NCBI GenBank assembly: GCA_947459425.1
Contig: CANHDJ010000011.1
Coordinates: forward strand, 11,652-75,651
Origin: Ignavibacteria bacterium
GTDB taxonomy: Bacteria > Bacteroidota > Ignavibacteria > Kapaibacteriales > UBA4661
Direction: 5' to 3'
DNA: 64,000 nucleotides
Part shown: positions 12,703-54,100 of the stretch, piece after piece
Numbering within the stretch: the stretch's first letter is position 1
How the letters are laid out: every line of letters begins with the position of its first letter
Made by a program: the position numbers and the translations under genes
Notes under the pieces: generated by a model
The model's database searches: none
What the model was told of the DNA's origin: nothing
Seen by the model: the letters and a program-made list of their open reading frames with translations, nothing else

Positions 12703-14985
12703 TTGCAAAAGATACGTTCAAGGGAAAGAGATATGGTGTTGTGTTCACGAATTATTGCGCTTGTAGGTTTTTTTTCCTGCATTGTCGGGATATGCCCCTT
12801 CGCGGCAAATGCACAAATCTCTCGCTTGGTTAAGCCCTTGGTGATAGCAAATAGCGATGCCGCAGTGCCTGTGGGAAACTATGCTGATGTGTTTGAAGAT
12901 ACCAAGCGCTCGCTGACTATTCACGATGTGCAATCGCTACCATCTATTTTCACGCCAACAAAACATTCAATTATTCATTACGGATTCACCACATCGGCAA
13001 TTTGGATGCGGTTTTCCGTCCTGAATCCTAGCGGTGAGCGGTGTTTTTTGCAAATCTATAATGCGCCACTCGACACCTTAGATGTGTATATTCCTCGTCT
13101 CGATGGAAGTGTTTTTCATAAGCGCTTTGGCGCAGGAATACTGGGTTCACGGGAGTTTAGCAGTACCTATCCCGTCTTGGCACTGGAAGAATTAGACTCG
13201 GCGAAAACTCTGCCGCGTGATGTCTATGTGCGAGCAGTAAGCTACGGCGTGATGTACTTGGCAGGCGAAGTCGCCGGAACACAAGCGGTAATCCATACGT
13301 CGCTCTATTACTCGTGGTTCAATGCTATTTCCTTTACCGTACTTGTGGTATTGGTCATCTATAATTTCTTTATCTTCGCCACTGTTCGCCAGATGTCGTA
13401 TTTGTTGTATGTTCTTTATGGTATAGCGATAGCCGTGTTTTTTTCGTATCAAAAAGGATATGTGTTCTTGCTGGTGGGCGATAGCGTGGCTTCGTGGCTC
13501 TACAGCGTTCCGATGATGCCGAATATTCTGGTGTTGCTGCCCGCGATGTTGATATGCCTTTTTGCCGCATCATTCCTGCATACCCACGAGATTCTTCCGC
13601 ACTGGCACAAAGTATTGATGGGGCTAGTGATACTTTTTGCGGCAATAATGCTGGTGGGAAGCCTCACGGGGTTGAGCATTGCGCGGAAAGCGCTTTCCTT
13701 TTTAGTGATGGCTTCGTCGCTCACAACACTCGTTTGCGGCATACTTGCGCTCCGCAAAGGCTATGCTCCGGCGCGGTATTATCTTATCGGCTGGGGAACG
13801 TGGCTCACGGCAACGATTATCTATGCGCTTTTGGTCGAGCGAGTACTGCCGACAACGCGCTTTATTGAAATTGTCCTGCAACTCGGTGCGGCTTCCGAAG
13901 CGGTCTTGATGTCGTTTGCCCTTGGTGATCGTATTAATCTTTTGCAACGCAATCTTGCCAAAGAGCGCCAGCAACGCGCACTGTCGGAGCGCGAACGAGA
14001 ATTGGAGCATATTCGCATCGAAGAACTGGAAAAAGCCAATCAGCAAATACGGGAGCAACGCGATACCATCACCGATTACAATCTGAATATTGAAGCTGCT
14101 AATCTGGAATTACATCATATCAACGAACAACTAACCCAGCAACAGCGCCTTTTGGAGCAGCGAAGCCAAGAAATTGAGAAAATGAACGTACAGTTGCAAC
14201 AGCAAAACACGCAGTTGTACTCACTGAATGAAGAGAAAAATGAGTTTCTCGGCATTGCCGCCCACGACCTCAAAAACCCGCTTACAGGCTTGCGTGGAAT
14301 GTTGGAAATTTTTAATTCCGACGATGATTTGCCGAAAGAATATCGTAAAAAAATGGGTGTCGTCATGCGGCAGTCCGTTGACCGAATGTTCGAGATTGTG
14401 AGTAAATTTTTGGATGTTAATGCCATTGAGCAAGGCTCTATCAAGCCCAACGGGGAAATGTTTGTACTAATGCCGCTTGTGCAGTCGGTGGTCGGCAATT
14501 ACGCGCTTCCGGCAGCCGATAAGCATATTCGCTTGAGTGTTAATGGTGCTGAAGATGCGGAATGTTTTGCCGACAAACACCTCACCTTGCAAGTGCTGGA
14601 TAATCTTATATCGAACGCCGTTAAATACTCGTCCTTTGGCTCTCCCGTGCGTGTGTCCGTGCAAACAGATCTCTCGCCGGAACTTCAGGAATTATCAGCA
14701 AAACAGCACATTGCCGAAATTACGTCGCCACATATTTTCGTCATTGTTCACGATAGCGGACCGGGCATTACGCCAGATGACCGCAAAAAACTCTTTCGTA
14801 AATTTACTCGTCTCTCGGCAAAGCCCACCGGTGGCGAGCATTCAACGGGGCTTGGGCTGTCTATCGCCAAACGTCTCGTCGAGGCTATGCACGGCAATAT
14901 TTGGTGCCTCTCCGAAGGCAGCAATGGTGCGGTATTTATTCTTGCTCTACCGATAAATGACTGGCGGCGCTCCGGTCAAATGTAA
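12703..14985 (+). CDS. Sensor histidine kinase with a 7TMR-DISM-type extracellular and 7-TM input module
   Basis: It has an N-terminal signal, a periplasmic domain and seven hydrophobic helices. A coiled-coil is followed by the H-box AAHDLKNPL, N-box NLISNAVKYS, G1 DSGPGI and G2 GLGLSIA. An alternative start is the ATG at 12733. Confidence 0.85.
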   Translation: MQKIRSRERDMVLCSRIIALVGFFSCIVGICPFAANAQISRLVKPLVIANSDAAVPVGNYADVFEDTKRSLTIHDVQSLPSIFTPTKHSIIHYGFTTSAIWMRFSVLNPSGERCFLQIYNAPLDTLDVYIPRLDGSVFHKRFGAGILGSREFSSTYPVLALEELDSAKTLPRDVYVRAVSYGVMYLAGEVAGTQAVIHTSLYYSWFNAISFTVLVVLVIYNFFIFATVRQMSYLLYVLYGIAIAVFFSYQKGYVFLLVGDSVASWLYSVPMMPNILVLLPAMLICLFAASFLHTHEILPHWHKVLMGLVILFAAIMLVGSLTGLSIARKALSFLVMASSLTTLVCGILALRKGYAPARYYLIGWGTWLTATIIYALLVERVLPTTRFIEIVLQLGAASEAVLMSFALGDRINLLQRNLAKERQQRALSERERELEHIRIEELEKANQQIREQRDTITDYNLNIEAANLELHHINEQLTQQQRLLEQRSQEIEKMNVQLQQQNTQLYSLNEEKNEFLGIAAHDLKNPLTGLRGMLEIFNSDDDLPKEYRKKMGVVMRQSVDRMFEIVSKFLDVNAIEQGSIKPNGEMFVLMPLVQSVVGNYALPAADKHIRLSVNGAEDAECFADKHLTLQVLDNLISNAVKYSSFGSPVRVSVQTDLSPELQELSAKQHIAEITSPHIFVIVHDSGPGITPDDRKKLFRKFTRLSAKPTGGEHSTGLGLSIAKRLVEAMHGNIWCLSEGSNGAVFILALPINDWRRSGQM

Positions 14986-16902: not shown

Positions 16903-17014
16903 AGCCACTCGGACGGCGAAGAAAGCGCCGGACGGTGAGACCGCTCCCCGTTGGATGTCGCTAGACGAGAAGAGAACCGCGCCATCCGGCGGCTTCTTAG
17001 TCCGTCGGGTGGCT
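16903..17014 (-). repeat. Reverse-orientation, internally deleted copy of the roughly 140-bp MITE/REP-like element (see 49717-50789)
   Basis: The reverse complement reads AGCCACCCGACGGACTAAGAAGCCGCCGGATGGCGCGGTTC...GGAGCGGTCTCACCGTCCGGCGCTTTCTTCGCCGTCCG. Both ends match the full copies. Confidence 0.6.
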
Positions 17015-32896: not shown

Positions 32897-32920
32897 GTAA
32901 AGCGAGGATAAATGCTGTAC

Positions 32921-32960
32921 GAACGCGCCATCCGGCAGTTTCTTAGCCTGTCGGGTGGCT
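32921..32960 (-). repeat. Solo terminal segment of the MITE/REP-like element
   Basis: The reverse complement AGCCACCCGACAGGCTAAGAAACTGCCGGATGGCGCGTTC matches the left end of the copies at 49717, 49878 and 50650. Confidence 0.45.
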
Positions 32961-46335: not shown

Positions 46336-46503
46336 TGCGATTTGATGCTGCTTTCTTGTAAACGAGTATGGAGTATCTCGTCCTACGCGCAGAAGCCGCA
46401 CTAGAGCGAGATTCTCTCCTCATCAAACGAGCAGAAAAGCCCCGCCCAAGCGGCTTCTTCGCCGTCCGGCGACTTTGTGCCTGACGAGCAGAGGCGATCC
46501 CCC

Positions 46504-46545
46504 AAAAAAAAAAGCGAGACTCTCGTTCAGAAACGAGAGCCTCGC
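46504..46545 (-). terminator. Rho-independent terminator of the NHL/T9SS gene
   Basis: On the minus strand, GCGAGGCTCTCGTT-TCTG-AACGAGAGTCTCGC is followed by T10. Confidence 0.75.
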
Positions 46546-46565: not shown

Positions 46566-49500
46566 CTATCTCTTCACCATACGCTGCCGCAGAACACGAC
46601 CATCCGCCGCCTCGACAACCACCATGTATGCACCCGCGCCAAGCGCCGACACATTCACCACACCAGAAACAGTGCGCTCTTCCAGCACTACACCGCCGCG
46701 CATATCGTACAGCCGTACCGTGCGCATTCCCACGCCGCCTACACGCAATTCCCCGTCCACAGGGTTCGGGTAAACACTCAACTCCTGTGAAGCGCTCTGT
46801 TGATGCTTTCCAGTGACTATCTCCGCAATCTCCAACCCCGAAGCCGTGTTCGCCCACACCCGATCGCTCTGCTCCGCCCCCAATGCCGCTTGGAACGATG
46901 CCGTACTTTCAAAAAACGAACGTGGCAAAAGTACACCATGTGCTTGGCGGTCGGAGTTATTGACCAGAAGCGAAACCGTTGGCGAATTGGGCGTGAGGCG
47001 GAACGTGGACGGGATTTGTGCCATAAACGCCGTGTCGCTGTTTTGTGACAAAAGCGCAAGCGGCGCACCGCCAAGCGTCGAGCGAATATCGATAAGGAAA
47101 TTTATTCCTCGCACCCGCAGTATTCCGCCGCTTTGCAGCGTTACTCCCAGAATCGTCGGTGGTGGGCGGCGATTGATGCGCACAGAAGCACTGGTGCTTT
47201 GCCCATCGGTATTGGCGAGGCGCAGCGCCAGCGTGATGCCGCCTACATCGTTGAAGGAAGCGGGGATTTCCACAATCGCTTCGGTCGAAGACGGCACGGT
47301 GACTCGTGCCGGAGCATCATTCAGCCATGCCGTTGCAGTGCGAAAGATGCCCGTTCCCACAAGCCGCACACTGAAGGCAGAGCCGGAAGCCGTCGTGGAG
47401 CGCACCAGCGATTCCGCCCGCAGCTGTGGTGCTGCGCCCAATGTGACGGTGAGCGTGGTCGAAGTCGTCTGTCCGTCGGGGTTGGTGATCGTGATGGTTT
47501 TTATGCCGACGGACTGCAATATGCCCGGAAATGTGGTCTCCAAGACTGGTGCTGTCACGCTTTTCACGCCCACACTCACGCCCGTTCTGCCGTCGCTGGC
47601 TTGCACTCGCGCTCCGGCAAGGAAATCTGCACCCGAAAACGCAAGCGGAATATCCTCTCCCGTAGCTGGAAAACTCGCCGGAGAAGCCGTGATGATGCGT
47701 GGTGGGGGAAGGCGATTGTAGCGGAGTCCCAGCCCACTCATGTCGGCATTTGCGCCCGCGCCGCCTGTCAGCACAACACGGTCGTTGACAGGAACGCCGC
47801 CGACAGTGGCGGTGATTGTACCGTCGTTGACGACGACAAAGTTCGTAACAGGTACGCCACCAATGAGCAGCCCCGTCGCGCCCGTAAACCCTGAGCCACT
47901 CAGGGTGATGGGCGCACCAAAGCTGAGATTGCTAGTCGAAAAATTCCCCAGCACGGCAGATTGTGGCATGGAAACGCCGGAAGCCGCACTACCACTTGCG
48001 CCAGCAGTTCCCACAAAAAAGCCGCCCAAGGTGCTTAACCCAGCAGGCGAGGAGACGATGACGAGTTGCGCCCCACCTGTGACGATAGTTCCACTACCGA
48101 CAACGGCGGTGATTTGGGTGTTGCTGTTCACGACAAAACTTGCTGCGGGAACACCGCCGAAGCTGACCGAAGTTGCGCCTGTGAAGCCTGTGCCTGTGAT
48201 GACGACCGTTGTGCCAGGACTGGTGCGGTTGGGGGTGAAGGAGGTAATGCCCATCACGCCGACGGTGATGGAGATCGGAACAGAAGCAAGAGTACCACCG
48301 CAATTAGCGGCTTGGACAACAAAGGGGCCAAACGTACCAAGTATTGTAGGTGTACCAGAGAGAACACCCGTCCCCGACAATGACAAGCCCGGTGGCAATG
48401 CTCCCGACTGGAGAGAGAAGGTGAGCGGTGCGCCGCCATTGGCAGTAAACGTATATGTGTAGGGCTGCCCCAGAATGCTAAAGGGTGGTGTGGCAGTGGC
48501 AGCAGTAAAAAGTGTAGGCGGTGGTGGAGGGGGAGAAATTTTGCGGATGAGGCTGTTGCCATTGTCCGCCACATAGATATTTCCAGCGGCATCGGCGCAG
48601 ATTCCGGCAGGAGCACCAAATTGCGCGGTCAAGGCGCAACCGTCAGCCGAGCCTGCCCCGCCGCTTCCAGCGTAGGTAGTAACATTGCCACTGCCGTCAA
48701 TTTTGCGGATGCAGCGGTTGAATTGATCCGCCACATAGATATTCCCAGTGGCATCGGCGCAGACTCCGCTAGGATAGTCAAACTGCGCGGTAGCGGCGGC
48801 TCCGTTGGCAAAGCCTGCCGTGCCGCTTCCGGCGTAGGTGGTTACGTTCCCGCTGCCATCAATTTTACGGATGCGGTTATTGCCCGCGTCTGCCACATAG
48901 ATATTCCCAGCGGCATCGGCGCAGACTCCGACAGGGGAGTCAAACTGCGCAGTGGCTGCTGCTCCATTGACGAAGCCGAATGCCCCGCTTCCGGCGTAGG
49001 TACTTACATTGCCACTGCCGTCAATTTTGCGGATGCGGCTGTTGTTTAGGTCTGCTACATAGATATTCCCAGCGGCATCGGCGCAGACTCCGAAAGGATT
49101 TGAAAACTGCGCAGTGGCGGCTGCTCCATTAGCAAAACCTCCCGTTCCGCTTCCAGCGTAGGTACTTACATTGCCGCTGCCGTCAATTTTGCGGATACGC
49201 TGGTTGCTTATGTCTGCTACATAGATATTCCCAGCGGCATCGGCGCAGACCCCGTTAAGATTGTCAAACTGTGCAGTGGCGGCAACTCCATTAGCGAAAC
49301 CTGCCGTACCAGTTCCAGCGTATGTGGTTACATTGCCGCTGCCGTCAATTTTGCGGACGCGATTGTTGAAGTAATCGGCCACATAGATATTCCCAGCGGC
49401 ATCGGCGCAGACTCCGCCAGGACCGTTAAACCGGGCTGTAGCGGCTGCTCCATTGGCGAAGCCTGGAAAGGCTCCGGCGTAGGTAGAAACGGTTTGCGCG

Positions 49501-49622
49501 TGTGCAGTGTGCAGCAGAAAAGGGAGCAAAAGGACACATAGCCATCGCTGTAAAATTTTGATTGTTATAGGCTTATGGGGAGATATGGGGGCAGGTAAAT
49601 GCTGCAATATCATAGCAAACAT
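46566..49622 (-). CDS. Secreted surface protein: six-bladed NHL-repeat propeller, several IPT/TIG-like Ig domains and a T9SS type-A C-terminal sorting domain
   Basis: Signal peptide (WLCVLLLPFLLHTAHA). There are six repeats of GNIYVAD..N.IRKIDGSGNV.TYAGSG. IPT-like segments include TVVITGTGFTGATSVSFGGVPA. The C-terminus SVYPNPVDGELRV...VRLYDMRGGVV...LGAGAYMVVV is typical of TIGR04183-type CTDs. The track ORF (to 49883) was trimmed because its first 87 codons read through a repeat element. Confidence 0.88.
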   Translation of the reverse strand: MFAMILQHLPAPISPHKPITIKILQRWLCVLLLPFLLHTAHAQTVSTYAGAFPGFANGAAATARFNGPGGVCADAAGNIYVADYFNNRVRKIDGSGNVTTYAGTGTAGFANGVAATAQFDNLNGVCADAAGNIYVADISNQRIRKIDGSGNVSTYAGSGTGGFANGAAATAQFSNPFGVCADAAGNIYVADLNNSRIRKIDGSGNVSTYAGSGAFGFVNGAAATAQFDSPVGVCADAAGNIYVADAGNNRIRKIDGSGNVTTYAGSGTAGFANGAAATAQFDYPSGVCADATGNIYVADQFNRCIRKIDGSGNVTTYAGSGGAGSADGCALTAQFGAPAGICADAAGNIYVADNGNSLIRKISPPPPPPTLFTAATATPPFSILGQPYTYTFTANGGAPLTFSLQSGALPPGLSLSGTGVLSGTPTILGTFGPFVVQAANCGGTLASVPISITVGVMGITSFTPNRTSPGTTVVITGTGFTGATSVSFGGVPAASFVVNSNTQITAVVGSGTIVTGGAQLVIVSSPAGLSTLGGFFVGTAGASGSAASGVSMPQSAVLGNFSTSNLSFGAPITLSGSGFTGATGLLIGGVPVTNFVVVNDGTITATVGGVPVNDRVVLTGGAGANADMSGLGLRYNRLPPPRIITASPASFPATGEDIPLAFSGADFLAGARVQASDGRTGVSVGVKSVTAPVLETTFPGILQSVGIKTITITNPDGQTTSTTLTVTLGAAPQLRAESLVRSTTASGSAFSVRLVGTGIFRTATAWLNDAPARVTVPSSTEAIVEIPASFNDVGGITLALRLANTDGQSTSASVRINRRPPPTILGVTLQSGGILRVRGINFLIDIRSTLGGAPLALLSQNSDTAFMAQIPSTFRLTPNSPTVSLLVNNSDRQAHGVLLPRSFFESTASFQAALGAEQSDRVWANTASGLEIAEIVTGKHQQSASQELSVYPNPVDGELRVGGVGMRTVRLYDMRGGVVLEERTVSGVVNVSALGAGAYMVVVEAADGRVLRQRMVKR
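48540..49500. repeat. Six tandem 162-bp coding repeats (NHL blades) with long near-identical DNA stretches
   Basis: The string ACATAGATATTCCCAGCGGCATCGGCGCAGAC recurs at a 162-nt (54-codon) period. Confidence 0.7.
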
Positions 49623-49716
49623 CCTTGGAAAAAATGCACAAAAGAGGGAATTGCGGCGTAAAAATAGGGGAATGGGGGGAGAGGGGCAAGTTTTTTTTCG
49701 TTTCGGGAGAAGATAA

Positions 49717-49854
49717 AGCCACCCGACGGCGAAGAAGCCGCCGGATGGCGGGGTTCGTGCGGCGTGTGATGGCGTAGGTAACGTAGCGTTTGTGGTGCGA
49801 ATAAGAAAGAGCGGTCTCCCCGTCGGGCGCTTTCTTGAGCGTCCGGCGGGTGGG
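49717..49854 (+). repeat. MITE/REP-like intergenic element, copy A (about 138 bp)
   Basis: AGCCACCCGACGGCGAAGAAGCCGCCGGATGGCG...GGAGCGGTCTCCCCGTCGGGCGCTTTCTTGAGCGTCCGGCGGGTGGG. The ends form imperfect inverted repeats. Confidence 0.65.
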
Positions 49855-49877
49855 CGTAGGCTTGAGCGCGTTATGAC

Positions 49878-50028
49878 AGCCACCCGACGGGCTAAGAAGC
49901 CGCCGGATGGCGCGGTTCGTGCATGGTTCGTGCAATGTGTGATGGCGTAGGTAACGCAGCGGTTGTGGTGCGAAGAAGCAGGAGCGGTCTCCCCGTCGGG
50001 CGCTTTTCTTGAGCGTCCGGCGGGTGGG
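49878..50028 (+). repeat. MITE/REP-like element, copy B (about 151 bp, with an internal 11-bp duplication)
   Basis: Collinear with copy A, with few substitutions by eye. It contains GGTTCGTGCAT GGTTCGTGCAA. Confidence 0.65.
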
Positions 50029-50076
50029 TGTTGGTTGTCGGGTGCTTGGGTGCGTACCTCGTCCTACGCGGCTTCT

Positions 50077-50367
50077 TCACAATGGCAAACCGCCCGACAT
50101 ATCCTGTTTGGAATGGACAATAGCCAATATGATCACATCAGCATCAACGATGCCATAGATAAGCCGATAAGAGTACACCAGAAGTTCACGGATATTCTCG
50201 TCATTGAGCTCCGGCACAATACGCCCCATGCGCGGAAACTCCGCCAGCATTTCGCTTTTACGCACAAGTTCTTGCGTAACGCGCTTGGCATACATAGGAG
50301 AATCGGCTGCAATAAAATTATGCAATCGCTTCAAACGCTCTTTGGCGGGATTTGTCCAGCTTGCCAC
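50077..50367 (-). CDS. Type II toxin, RelE/ParE family
   Basis: (V)ASWTNPAKERLKRLHNFIAADSPMYAKRV...FPRMGRIVPELNDENIRELLVYSYRLIYGI...ILAIVHSKQDM matches the ParE/RelE pattern. The start is GTG at 50367. The rest of track ORF 50077..50838 is read-through of the antitoxin region and repeat copy C. Confidence 0.8.
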   Translation of the reverse strand: MASWTNPAKERLKRLHNFIAADSPMYAKRVTQELVRKSEMLAEFPRMGRIVPELNDENIRELLVYSYRLIYGIVDADVIILAIVHSKQDMSGGLPL

Positions 50368-50570
50368 TGCTCTATCTCGCGCTTGAGGTCGCTGAGTGCC
50401 GTTGTCTGGCTGTCTGCCGCAGCCTGTACGCCTTGCCGAACCTGCTCCAATACATACAGCCGATACATCATTTCTTCGGTCGTGGCGTTCTCTGGTAACG
50501 ATGTGAGTGCTTGTAAAGCAGCGTGTTTGGGGCTGCTGTTCTGACCAACAATAGAGGTAAATGCTTGCAT
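50331..50570 (-). CDS. Putative cognate antitoxin (79 aa)
   Basis: A small ORF immediately upstream of, and overlapping, the toxin. It has the motif EEMMYRLYVLEQVRQGVQAA...LKREIEQW seen in antitoxins paired with this ParE subgroup (from memory). Confidence 0.7.
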   Translation of the reverse strand: MQAFTSIVGQNSSPKHAALQALTSLPENATTEEMMYRLYVLEQVRQGVQAAADSQTTALSDLKREIEQWQAGQIPPKSV

Positions 50571-50649
50571 AACCGCTTCTCATGTTCAAATGGTGAATAC
50601 AGTGTCGTCCATTCCCACAAATATACGCAAAAAAAAACAACCCACCAGC

Positions 50650-50789
50650 AGCCACCTCGGACGGGGAAGAAGTCGCCGTAGGGCGCGGTTCGTGCAGCGT
50701 TTGACGGCGTAGATAACGCAGCGTTTGTGGTGCGTAAAAGAAGGAGCGGTCTCCCCGCCCGAGGCGCTTTCTTGAGCGTCCGGCGGGTG
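50650..50789 (+). repeat. MITE/REP-like element, copy C (about 140 bp)
   Basis: AGCCACCTCGGACGGGGAAGAAGTCGCCGTAGGGCGCGGTTCGTGCAGCG...GGAGCGGTCTCCCCGCCCGAGGCGCTTTCTTGAGCGTCCGGCGGGTG. It has the same orientation as copies A and B. Confidence 0.65.
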
Positions 50790-50838
50790 TCGTCATTGGC
50801 GCATTGACACAAGCACCGTCAATATACCGCCAGCACAA

Positions 50839-50962
50839 TCACCCACCCCATCCCCATCTTCTCGCTTCCTACAATCCTTTTGCCCTTCTCCCCAACCCTT
50901 TTCCCTCATCCCCCATCCCTTTTCCCCTCTCCCCGACCGACCCAAAGTTTTCCCCATTTCCC
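50839..50962. repeat. Polypyrimidine (C-run-rich) tract with a 21-bp sub-periodicity upstream of the giant gene
   Basis: By my count about 102 of 124 nt are C/T, with at least 14 runs of C3-C5. CCTTTTGCCC, CCCTTTTCCC and CCCTTTTCCCC start at 50876, 50896 and 50917. Confidence 0.6.
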
Positions 50963-51027
50963 GAAAGTCGGACACTATTTTTTGCAAATTCGAGAAAGTC
51001 GGACGTTCATTCGAGAAAGTCGGACAC
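50963..51027. promoter_or_regulatory. Three direct copies of GAAAGTCGGAC(A/G); the last two lie inside a 21-bp tandem ATTCGAGAAAGTCGGAC. Candidate operator array 140-200 bp upstream of the giant ORF.
   Basis: Copies at 50963-50975, 50994-51005 and 51015-51027, read directly from the sequence. Confidence 0.4.
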
Positions 51028-51177
51028 AATAAAAAAAAACATTTCCTTGCTTTTTCGTATTTTTGTAGCCTGTACCGAACATAGTTTTTTTGTTTCTTTG
51101 TGTCGACTCTTCATTCGTATCGGTATCAAACTGTGTTTTCCCTTTCTTGTTGCTTCTCTCATTTCATGGTGAACTTT

Positions 51178-54100
51178 ATGAACCTCTCCCGTACTCGTTT
51201 CGTTGTTGTCAATTTCTTGACGCTCCTTTGTTTTTTTGCCATCGCCGGAACAAATCTATCCTTGTGGGCAGCCACCTTTACCGTTACCAATACCAATGAT
51301 GCCGGAGCAAGCTCTTTGCGGCAGGCTATTCTTGATGCCAATGCCACTGGAGGCGCTACCGCAGTCGCACCACACATCATAGACGCAACGGGCGTAACAG
51401 GGACGATTACTCTAGCTTCAGCACTTCCGGCATTGAATAACCACATCACCATCAATGGTCCCGGTGCGGCTCTGATTGTCAGTGGCAATAACCTCTTCCC
51501 CGTGTTCTTTGCCAGCCAAACAGCACCGTTCACCATTCAGCTTAATAATTTTACGATTACCAATGGTCGGGCGCAAGGTAGTAATGGCGGTACTGGTGGT
51601 GTTGCAGGTGGTGGTGGTGGTGGTGGTGGTTTTGGAGGTGGATTGTTTGTTAATCAAGGAAGCATCACATTACAAAACATGATGTTCTCTGGCAACCAAG
51701 CCATCGGCGGTAATGGTGGTGCGGGCGGTGGTGGCAATGCTCCGGGAGGAATTGGCGGAACCCCATCCCCGTCAGTGCTTGGTACAGGAGGAACAAGCCC
51801 CTCTGGTAATCCGCCAGCAGCAGCGAATTGTGGTGGGAGGAACGGTACATTTGGCGGTGGCGGGAGCGGCGGCGCAATTGGTCCAGCTTTTTGCAACGGA
51901 TATGGCGGTGGTGGCGGTGGATTCGGTGGCGGTGGCGGTGGCGGCAGTTTTGGAGGTGGCGGTGGCTTAGGTGGTGGTCCATTTGGCGGTGCTGGTTCTG
52001 CGGGCAGCGCGTGTTCATATGGTGGTGCTGGTGGTGCTGGTGGTGGGCTTGGTGGTGCCGTATTCGTCGCTTCGGTGGCAACGTTTACGATGACAGGATG
52101 CACCTTTACAAGTAATTCCGCCACTGGTGGAACTGCTGGCAATAATGGTGGTTGTGGTGGTGCCGCTACAAACGGTCAAGGCAAAGGCGGCGCAATCTTC
52201 ATCCAAGCAGGCGCAACGGCAACCGAACTCGCTACAACGTACACCGGGAATACTGCCGGAAGTGCAGGAACGGCATATTTCAATCTTCCGCAAGACAACC
52301 CCAATGTGTGGGGAAATCTGAGTGGAACGTATTATTATCAATCCGGCGACCCGTCTGTGCCGGGGAATTGGAACTCTCTTCTTGGCGGTGGTGGCATTCC
52401 GGCAATTAATTTTACGACGGGCGGCGAAACATTTATTGTTCCGGCGACACGCACCGCAAACATCACCGTTAGCGATATTACCATCGGCTTGGGCGTTACC
52501 TTTCAAGTAGATCTCGGCGGCACACTGACCGTCGGAAGCGGCAGAGCAATCACCAATAATGGTGCGGTTACTGTTGCGGGGCTGTTCCGTCAAGATGGCG
52601 GATCGAGCTTTACTAATGCGGGGACGTTCACCGTCAATGCCGGAGGAACACTGCGAGTTCTGGATAATCCGACCATAACCGGAACGGCATTTGTCTATTC
52701 CGCCGCGACCTCGCTGCTGGAATATACCGGGACAACTGCCCGAATAACCTCCATCGAATTTCCTGCCGCTATGTCCGGCTCGGTAACGGTGGACAATACC
52801 GCCGGAATCACGATGAATGCTCTCAAAACGCTCAGTGCAACAAGTGTGGTGACGTTGACAAACGGAGAGCTTATCAATACGGCGTTTGCTTCCAGACTTG
52901 TTATGAACAATACGACCGCCGGAGCATTTACCCGCACCAACGGCGTTGTGAACGGCTATGTTGAGCGCCTTGTGCCAAGCAACGGTACGCCATATACTAT
53001 TCCTGTCGGTGTCGGCGCTTCGTATTTACCGTTAGAATTTACGCCCACAGCCGGCGCGGGAACAAACATCGTTGCCCGCGCCTACGCTGGTGCAAGTCCG
53101 GGTACCCCCGGATCGGGTATGACAAGTTTGAACGCTTTTGGCTATTGGGAAGTGCTGACGAGTGCCGGGACGCGCAATGGAACGGTAAGCCTCACGCCTT
53201 CCTCAGTGCTGCCAGCCGGAAATGCTGTTGCTTTAGCAGCAACGGTCGGCGGTGCATACAACAGCATTGGTCCTCTGAATTTTGCGGGTGGTGCTAGCAT
53301 TACACAAACCCTTGCGAATGCGTACACCACTACGTCAGGTTTTCTTGTGACGGGTGTGGTGGGGCAGTATTACTACAATAATGCCAACGTATTTCCGGGC
53401 GGTGCAAATAACCCTGCAAACTGGGATACAACACCCGGCGCGGGTTATGGCACGGCGGCAGGAAATTTTACTTCGTTGGGAACGAGCTTTTTCGTTGAAA
53501 ACGGTGCAACCGCAACGCTTACCGCTAATTTGACTATCGGCACGGCTTCATCGGGAACAAATTTCACCATTCAAAGCGGCGGAATGCTGAACACAGTGGG
53601 CTTTGTGCTGACAATAGGTGGCAATAACGGCGCATTTACCGCCCAAAATAACTCTACTATTCGCTTGGCACATATTCAAGGGCTGCACGGCACCGCCAAT
53701 AATCAAGGCGCAATCCAAGTCCCGCTTGCGCCCGTCGGTATCACCATCTCCTATCTCGGCAACGTTAATTTCTTTTTCGACCCGCCGGCACCTGCTGGCG
53801 GGTATTCGATGAATATCGGGGCGACAACGAACAAGCCCGCCCTGACTGTCTGCGGAAATCTTACCATGAATCAAACCGGTCTCAATTCGTGGATGCTTGG
53901 TAGCTCTTTAACCGTAAACGGTACGTTTACCTTGCAAACAGGCAATTTTAATCTGACGGGTGTCGGGGTTTCCACCTTAACCTTGGCAGGTACCGGAAAT
54001 GTGGTGATGAGCGGGCGAGTAATGACCATCGGTACAAATTTTGTCTTGGCAAATCCAAACGACCTGACCATTCAAAACGGTATCGGTCAGTTTATTGTTT

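Follow-up and report, generated by a model that had tools for sequence, protein, structure and literature searches.

The DNA analysed here, referred to as the window, is a stretch of 64,000 nt from the draft genome of an uncultured Kapabacteria/Ignavibacteria bacterium (contig C11, positions 11652–75651; 3.4 Mb in 93 contigs, 86.6% complete; other contigs of this assembly are designated in the same way). It contains three short repeats, copies A, B and C, arranged around a small gene pair resembling a toxin–antitoxin (TA) system. The initial annotation had described them as collinear copies of one element, with A and B in tandem 23 bp apart and B and C flanking the gene pair as direct repeats, and a repeat search and a MAFFT alignment (81% mean column identity) confirmed this layout, the gene pair being on the minus strand. 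Each copy does have the imperfect inverted repeats reported at its ends, which are better described as two inverted copies of a single 32-nt hairpin unit. Elements of this form are called Type I in what follows. The features of the locus are:

49717–49854, plus strand: copy A, Type I head-to-head hairpin doublet (repeat search, alignment and fold)
49718–49749: 5′ unit of copy A, folding on the minus strand
49750–49818: spacer of copy A
49819–49850: 3′ unit of copy A, folding on the plus strand
49878–50028, plus strand: copy B, Type I doublet, units at about 49879–49911 and 49992–50024
50077–50367, minus strand: ParE/RelE-type toxin gene, 96 amino acids (aa) as publicly called (Pfam PF05016, E = 1e-16)
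50331–50570, minus strand: putative antitoxin gene, 79 aa, upstream of the toxin gene and overlapping it by 37 nt
50650–50789, plus strand: copy C, Type I doublet, units at 50651–50684 (with indels) and 50756–50787

Copy A lies 104 nt upstream of the start of an NHL gene (49613, minus strand); copy B, which carries an internal 11-nt duplication (GGTTCGTGCAT/GGTTCGTGCAA), is found downstream of ParE, 49 nt past its stop codon. Copy C has diverged more than the other two; it stands upstream of the antitoxin gene, 80 nt from its start, within the gap between this gene and a divergently oriented giant gene starting at 51166. A is 86–87% identical to B and C, which are 80% identical to each other and share no exact match longer than 22 nt. 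The copies found on contigs C7 and C23 resemble A (88% identity) no less than B or C do, and the three copies are not each other's nearest relatives. As for the gene pair, a toxin domain together with a small, overlapping upstream partner open reading frame (ORF) is what is expected of a type II system of the ParE/RelE kind, to which we assign it, the toxin also matching TIGR02385 (E = 5e-5, below the cut-off of that model) and the putative antitoxin matching no family in Pfam or NCBIfam.

A Structure-Conserved Hairpin Unit and Its Head-to-Head Doublets

The building block of the three copies, here REP-1, is a GC-rich 32-nt hairpin, CCCGTCGGGCGGC-TTCTTC-GCCGTCCGGCGGG, made of a 13-bp stem and a TTCTTC loop. 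Over 40 distinct unit variants from this genome and two relatives, 96% of the stem cells are paired, a value that falls to 34–59% in a control in which the partner is slid by one to three columns. Compensatory double changes were found at 7 of the 13 stem pairs, for example at the loop-closing pair (C-G to U-A in 13 variants) and at pair 7-26 (G-C to C-G). Moreover, G.T wobbles at pairs 5-28 and 9-24 are kept in 36–37 of the 40 variants, and one strand therefore folds perfectly, the other having C.A mismatches. Structure is clearly what is conserved in this unit.

In Type I elements (A, B, C and about 18 others), a unit on the minus strand, a spacer and a unit on the plus strand follow each other, so that the units stand head to head. 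The 5′ unit is a compensated variant, reading GCCATCCGGCGGC...GCCGTCGGGTGGC on its folding strand; it differs from its partner at 6 of 32 positions, and each of the two folds on itself. The edges of the spacer (GCGGTTC ... GAGCGGT) pair with each other and its centre is variable (36% mean identity), the family consensus fold consisting of two separate unit hairpins and a 6-bp stem from the spacer edges. Folding z-scores of whole elements are modest (−1.3 to −2.4), and an Rfam scan of 49000–51500 gave no match at E ≤ 1. Target-site duplications were absent from the inspected flanks of 18 Type I copies, and the elements have neither GTAAC-type ends nor ends common to any insertion sequence (IS) of the genome.

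A Dispersed, Intergenic and Noncoding Family

The initial annotation had proposed a repeat family dispersed beyond this locus. By combining BLASTN and three rounds of nhmmer over the whole genome, we recovered 46 merged loci, and a Hamming scan with the most conserved core yielded 58 units, the 30-nt core being exact in 16 of them. In a genome whose coding fraction is about 88% by a crude codon-usage gene call, all loci except one weak match fall between genes or only in over-extended 5′ ends of ORFs. Two observations that could have spoken against such a family, a lack of further copies and the translation of the segments as parts of real proteins, were looked for, and neither was made. REP-1 elements form a noncoding, dispersed intergenic repeat family, and preferential residence in intergenic DNA, which the initial annotation had kept as a fallback, is the explanation that fits best. 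Because its copies are 60–90% identical, the family looks old and largely quiescent. Besides A and B, tandem clusters occur at C6:66692–66940 and C31:36529–36736, where partial Type I copies with periods of about 70 bp and 100 bp, respectively, lie upstream of other large genes.

That the copies might encode the N-terminal parts of real proteins deserved attention, given that their minus-strand frames are open: the ORFs 46566–49883, 49892–50080 and 50468–50812 (all on the minus strand) do read through the elements, as previously noted, and share RPTGRPL...RTTNA..PTPSHAART peptides. However, the MAFFT alignment shows that copies differ by 1-, 2- and 11-nt indels that break any reading frame, and public gene calls on identical contigs place the NHL gene start at 49613, with a signal-peptide-like beginning, outside copy A. 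For these reasons the ORF extensions are artefacts. The element is also found in both orientations and in convergent gaps, and the probability left to a coding role is close to nil.

A Second Form of the Hairpin Travels in IS66-Type Elements

Most apparent singlet units proved to be the first unit of a second form, Type II, in which the units stand tail to tail: GTAACTATTCAGGTAtcac, a plus-strand unit, a spacer of about 40 nt, a minus-strand unit with a 19-nt loop, and TACCTGAATAGTTAC. The ends of this form (GTAACTNNTCAGGT) are shared with an IS66-family IS of the genome, and intact copies, here and in the related metagenome-assembled genome (MAG) JAAFIV, are flanked by 8-bp target duplications (GCTAAAAC, ATTTCACG, CTTACTAT, GTTATTTC and AAAAAATC). 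A target duplication of 8 bp is a trait of the IS66 family (ISfinder). Because of the shared ends and the duplications, we classify Type II, on sequence grounds, as a true IS66-type miniature inverted-repeat transposable element (MITE). It resembles IS66-family elements of the single-ORF, ISBst12-like kind and their MITEs in all these respects, including the GTAA with which IS66 inverted repeats start (PMC12888890), whereas both the ends and the duplications are lacking in copies A, B and C.

The parent IS, whose ends read GTAACTGGTCAGGTC, interrupts the assembly at a number of contig termini and is only partly assembled in this bin. It is of the single-ORF type (DUF6444, zf-IS66 and DDE_Tnp_IS66). 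The 42 aa at its C-terminus match the final 35 positions of NF033517, and its C-terminal peptide shares 93% and 72% identity with the C-termini of proteins in which PF03050 occurs with zf-IS66 and DUF6444; of its N-terminal 30 aa, 21 are identical to those of P0136, one of these PF03050 proteins. These IS end fragments at contig termini argue for an IS66-family origin of Type II. The inverted repeats of classical proteobacterial IS66 elements (GTAAGCGTCCGGCG; PMC12888890) resemble the hairpin arm GCGTCCGGCG; we treat this resemblance as a coincidence because the local IS66 ends lack the box and its orientation is wrong for a terminus.

The same ends also bound an AT-rich MITE of 203 bp with an 8-bp duplication (GTCAATTC), present in at least nine copies. 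Because these are 98–100% identical, this MITE seems to have been active recently, in contrast to the Type I doublets, which have diverged. More generally, GTAAC...GTTAC ends enclose at least four hairpin cargoes, namely REP-1, a second hairpin family described below (REP-2), CGCCCCCTTGACAAAGGGGG, and CCGTCCTACGC...GCGTAGGACGG, as well as hybrids of two of them. The elements make up a modular MITE superfamily in which the RAYT-associated hairpin (see below) also rides. Their positions are:

C1:145956–146102, C85:1–128, C17:1–150, C35:1–149 and C71:11954–12098: ends of the IS66-family IS
C12:5278–5479, C22:1–202, C68:15326–15527 and six contig ends: 203-bp MITE
C1:54360–54427, C14:2171–2324, C14:47844–47975, C23:22260–22373, C36:15955–16122, C43:8034–8158, C64:5296–5451 and, in L035, 2091–2256: multi-cargo MITEs

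Transposases and the REP-2 Family

Hairpins of the repetitive extragenic palindrome (REP) kind can be associated with a REP-associated tyrosine transposase (RAYT), and a Pfam search of the genome returned three Y1 genes. Two of them encode the TnpA of IS200/IS605 elements, the end hairpins of which bear no relation to the REP-1 unit. One of these regions (C46:27739–28791) comprises tnpA and the start of a TnpB-like ORF ended by the contig edge, with a left-end hairpin (GCCGTAAATCCCC...GGGGATTTACGGC) unrelated to the repeat families. The third gene, at C17:52704–53246, is RAYT-like (NF047646, 65 bits, where the cut-off is 80) and is flanked on both sides by doublets of the REP-2 hairpin (region C17:52550–53357), a family with about 15 loci in the genome. 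RAYT homologs from JAAFIV (L040) and from a JGI contig (L042) have flanking hairpins that change in step with the gene (GCGAGGCTCTCGC vs. GTGAGGCTCTCAC), and for this reason the only RAYT belongs to REP-2 and not to REP-1. This gene and its hairpins resemble a textbook REP–RAYT pair, here in Kapabacteria/Ignavibacteria. A clade profile detected no second RAYT, and no RAYT flanked by the REP-1 unit was found, in this 86.6%-complete assembly; nor was there any Y1 gene within about 4 kb of 36 unit loci in relatives.

Away from copies A to C, the window contains other members of the two families:

16903–17014, minus strand: Type I copy whose spacer is short, between convergent genes
32907–32960, minus strand: Type I half copy, with the 5′ unit and the left spacer edge only
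46443–46472, plus strand: degenerate single REP-1 unit with 6 mismatches, downstream of the NHL gene stop
46508–46545, plus strand: single REP-2 hairpin (GCGAGAC.CTCG...CGAGAGCCTCGC), of the family flanking the only RAYT gene of the genome

The NHL-repeat gene has tandem repeats of its own at 49000–49485, three units of 162 bp (the other two 86% and 72% identical to the first) that correspond to propeller blades and are unrelated to the hairpin family.

Distribution and Turnover

The unit occurs in three of nine genomes of the same genus, and the other genera represented among 61 relatives lack it. A search of 185,579 species genomes found it in only two MAGs (JAAFHM01 and JAAFIV01), both labelled Ignavibacteria bacterium and belonging to this genus, and viral contigs gave no match. 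In JAAFHM, whose flanking DNA is 91–97% identical to that of the present genome, most sites are orthologous. At C7:26900, this genome has a doublet and JAAFHM the 3′ unit only, with a different left flank that looks like a remnant of Type II. At two sites, JAAFHM has an element where unrelated intergenic DNA is found here, and one Type I copy at an orthologous site has lost 13 nt in this genome. This distribution points to mostly vertical inheritance within one genus, with slow gain, loss and remodelling.

Comparison with Known Repeat Systems

The description of the copies as MITE/REP-like stands in its second half only. A, B and C are REP-like and, because they have no 8-bp duplication and no GTAAC-type ends, they are not MITEs in the strict sense, which would require target duplications and IS-shared ends. 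What we found is a 20–40-nt palindrome conserved in structure and dispersed outside genes as singles, inverted pairs and clusters, with no target duplication, as in REPs and bacterial interspersed mosaic elements (BIMEs). With the REPs, BIMEs and REP doublets forming hairpins (REPINs) of Enterobacteria and Pseudomonas, the family shares a short GC-rich imperfect palindrome, extragenic singles, inverted pairs with defined linkers and small clusters, the lack of target duplications, heterodimeric partners and strand-specific mismatches. It differs from them in having tens of copies rather than hundreds, no GTAG tag and no RAYT flanked by the unit. In the consensus fold, moreover, the two inverted units do not form one long hairpin as in REPINs but fold separately, with 6 of 32 mismatches between partners.

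Families of CGTC-tagged REPs without a dedicated transposase are known and have been reported in Bacteroidetes and Chlorobi (Di Nocera, De Gregorio and Rocco 2013, PMC3733652). The present unit resembles them in starting with CC-CGTC, in pairing mostly head to head, in its taxonomic surroundings and in having no dedicated transposase despite the RAYT and IS200 genes of the genome. However, their CGTC is an unpaired tag next to an 8–9-bp stem with basal A-T pairs and a CCA tail, whereas here CGTC (unit positions 3–6) lies inside the 13-bp stem and is paired (3-30 to 6-27). Because its CGTC is base-paired, we do not place the unit in the CGTC superfamily. Another parallel is QMITE2 of Coxiella burnetii, a single family with a full form bearing terminal inverted repeats (TIRs) and 7–11-nt direct repeats and a small REP-like form with neither, both mostly in intergenic or 3′ regions and at positions conserved between strains (PMC5896051). 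The difference is that the TIR-less form described here is no truncation of the other: its units are inside-out (head-to-head vs. tail-to-tail) and its spacer is different.

Two further derivations were considered and rejected. An integron attC-like nature was discarded, there being no GTTRRRY/RYYYAAC core at the element ends and no cassettes among the neighbouring genes. Likewise, an origin of the Type I spacer from the head-to-head junction of two MITE ends or TIRs was not retained, the similarity not being significant (p = 0.26–0.98).

Weighing the Explanations

We consider, with a probability of about 0.7, that A, B and C are noncoding and nonautonomous repeats of the REP/BIME kind, in the form of lineage-specific hairpin doublets whose bracketing of the TA pair is incidental. 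Each would be a head-to-head pair of the 32-nt unit joined by a spacer with paired edges and a variable centre, and the TA pair would lie in a repeat-rich accessory region. Several observations weigh against this interpretation. A transposase for the Type I doublets was sought by Y1 search, tblastn, a custom profile and inspection of IS200/IS605 flanks, and none could be assigned to them, in an assembly that is 86.6% complete and with relatives covered only around 36 exact unit matches. The evidence for turnover comes from three sites; the compensatory changes were counted over related copies, in which a few subfamily events are counted many times; and the CGTC motif is part of the stem here, whereas CGTC REPs are defined by an unpaired one. 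Finally, the TA pair is not the only gene lying between direct Type I copies, and such clustering exceeds random expectation: on C35 (12595–13570), a full Type I doublet stands on one side of a DUF3782-like gene of 217 aa (12837–13489; PF12644, E = 1.6e-4, which is below the cut-off), and on the other a 3′ half copy begins immediately past the stop codon of that gene.

This last point bears directly on the suggestion that B and C are the ends of a recombining or transposing unit that took up the TA cassette or is able to excise or duplicate it. The direct orientation of the copies around the pair and the C35 arrangement speak for this, and adjacent intergenic pairs are commoner than a random placement of about 20 loci predicts, which is why we keep it as a rival of low probability. 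Moreover, the nearest relative of the ParE protein in 5.8 billion proteins is only 60% identical, so that the cassette has probably been acquired recently. In the search for the orthologous TA locus of relatives, the N-terminus of the giant gene matched only distant, paralog-like sequences (at most 61%) in metagenomes. Yet 1.8 kb is 100% identical in four assemblies from different samples, and the 80% identity and 22-nt longest exact match of B and C are marginal for homologous recombination. The three copies are as similar to those on C7 and C23 as to each other, no second REP-flanked copy of the cassette was found (ParE homologs being at most 60% identical, and the nearest of them, in L043, coming from an unrelated MAG with no hairpin unit nearby), and the element ends have no integron-type core site. 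Capture or excision by B and C thus has no support so far; the bracketing appears incidental, and we regard mobilization of the cassette as quite improbable.

Equally improbable is a classical MITE nature of A, B and C, by which they would derive from a DDE-type IS through internal deletion and move by cut-and-paste through their TIRs. Their ends are indeed imperfect inverted repeats, a sister form of the hairpin is an IS66-type MITE, and an IS66-family IS is present in the genome. However, the Type I copies, about 18 in number, all lack target duplications and GTAACTNNTCAGGT ends, no IS of the genome has the Type I termini (AGCCACCCGACGG...CCGGCGGGTGG), and the genes found between unit pairs (ribH, mnmA/engB and the DUF3782-like gene here, dnaB in a relative) are, for ribH, mnmA/engB and dnaB, housekeeping genes and include no transposases. 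This explanation is largely refuted. A more nuanced case is that of hairpins kept mainly for a host function, as terminators, stabilizers of mRNA 3′ ends or protein-binding sites, their spread being secondary. The stem is maintained by compensatory changes with strand-specific G.T wobbles, and the 30-nt core is exact in 16 copies. About 17 of 25 single units or first units of Type II lie 14–49 nt after a stop codon, in the orientation of a hairpin followed by a T-rich tail, and the 5′ unit of copy A, downstream of ParE, is predicted to be terminator-like on the minus strand. Against this, about one third of the units are in the wrong orientation, the outer flanks of Type I usually lack T runs, and there is neither an Rfam match nor a z-score beyond the range of −1.3 to −2.4. 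We hold a mainly host-driven maintenance to be unlikely; it is compatible with the REP/BIME interpretation rather than exclusive of it. A terminator or stabilizer side-effect of the hairpins is plausible, and the minus-strand hairpins could serve as transcript-end or stabilizing structures for the TA operon.

Origin of the Doublets and Significance

The two forms of the hairpin would differ in how they spread. The tail-to-tail hairpins travel inside IS66-type MITEs, which would be moved by the DDE transposase of the IS66 family; because the head-to-head doublets lack its ends and duplications, this enzyme would not move them. The origin of the Type I doublets has to be inferred. An activity recognizing hairpins in single-stranded DNA (HUH/Y1, RAYT-like), the gene of which has been lost or is not assembled, is a serious candidate that still falls short of even odds. 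Recombination or gene conversion seeded at pre-existing hairpin units is only slightly less probable in our view, and the remainder goes to other origins. It is rather unlikely that the hairpin, rather than the element, is the persistent module, spread by two unrelated routes, IS66 DDE transposition for the tail-to-tail form and an activity targeting the hairpin foot for the head-to-head form. In that case, a module of about 100 nt (5′ unit and spacer, ending in GGAGCGGTCTCC) would be added at the CGTC "head" of a pre-existing unit, with which the greater uniformity of the 5′ unit (90% mean identity, against 77% for the 3′ unit), the solitary 3′ unit of JAAFHM at the C7 site and the lack of a RAYT flanked by the family are consistent. 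If this were true, pairs of doublets might mark the entry sites of small accessory genes such as the TA pair and the DUF3782-like gene.

In practical terms, these elements create spurious N-terminal extensions and interrupt short-read assemblies (two Logan contigs stop 12 nt into copy B), and it is advisable to mask them when annotating MAGs of Kapabacteria/Ignavibacteria. They are an ordinary kind of small repetitive DNA, in which specialists of bacterial repeats will find nothing unexpected. The genome is nonetheless a compact example of one hairpin unit that occurs both as a naked REP-type doublet and as the cargo of an IS66-type MITE, with a separate RAYT and its own hairpin family in the same genome, and this lineage is a reasonable place to ask how REP families without a transposase arise and persist.

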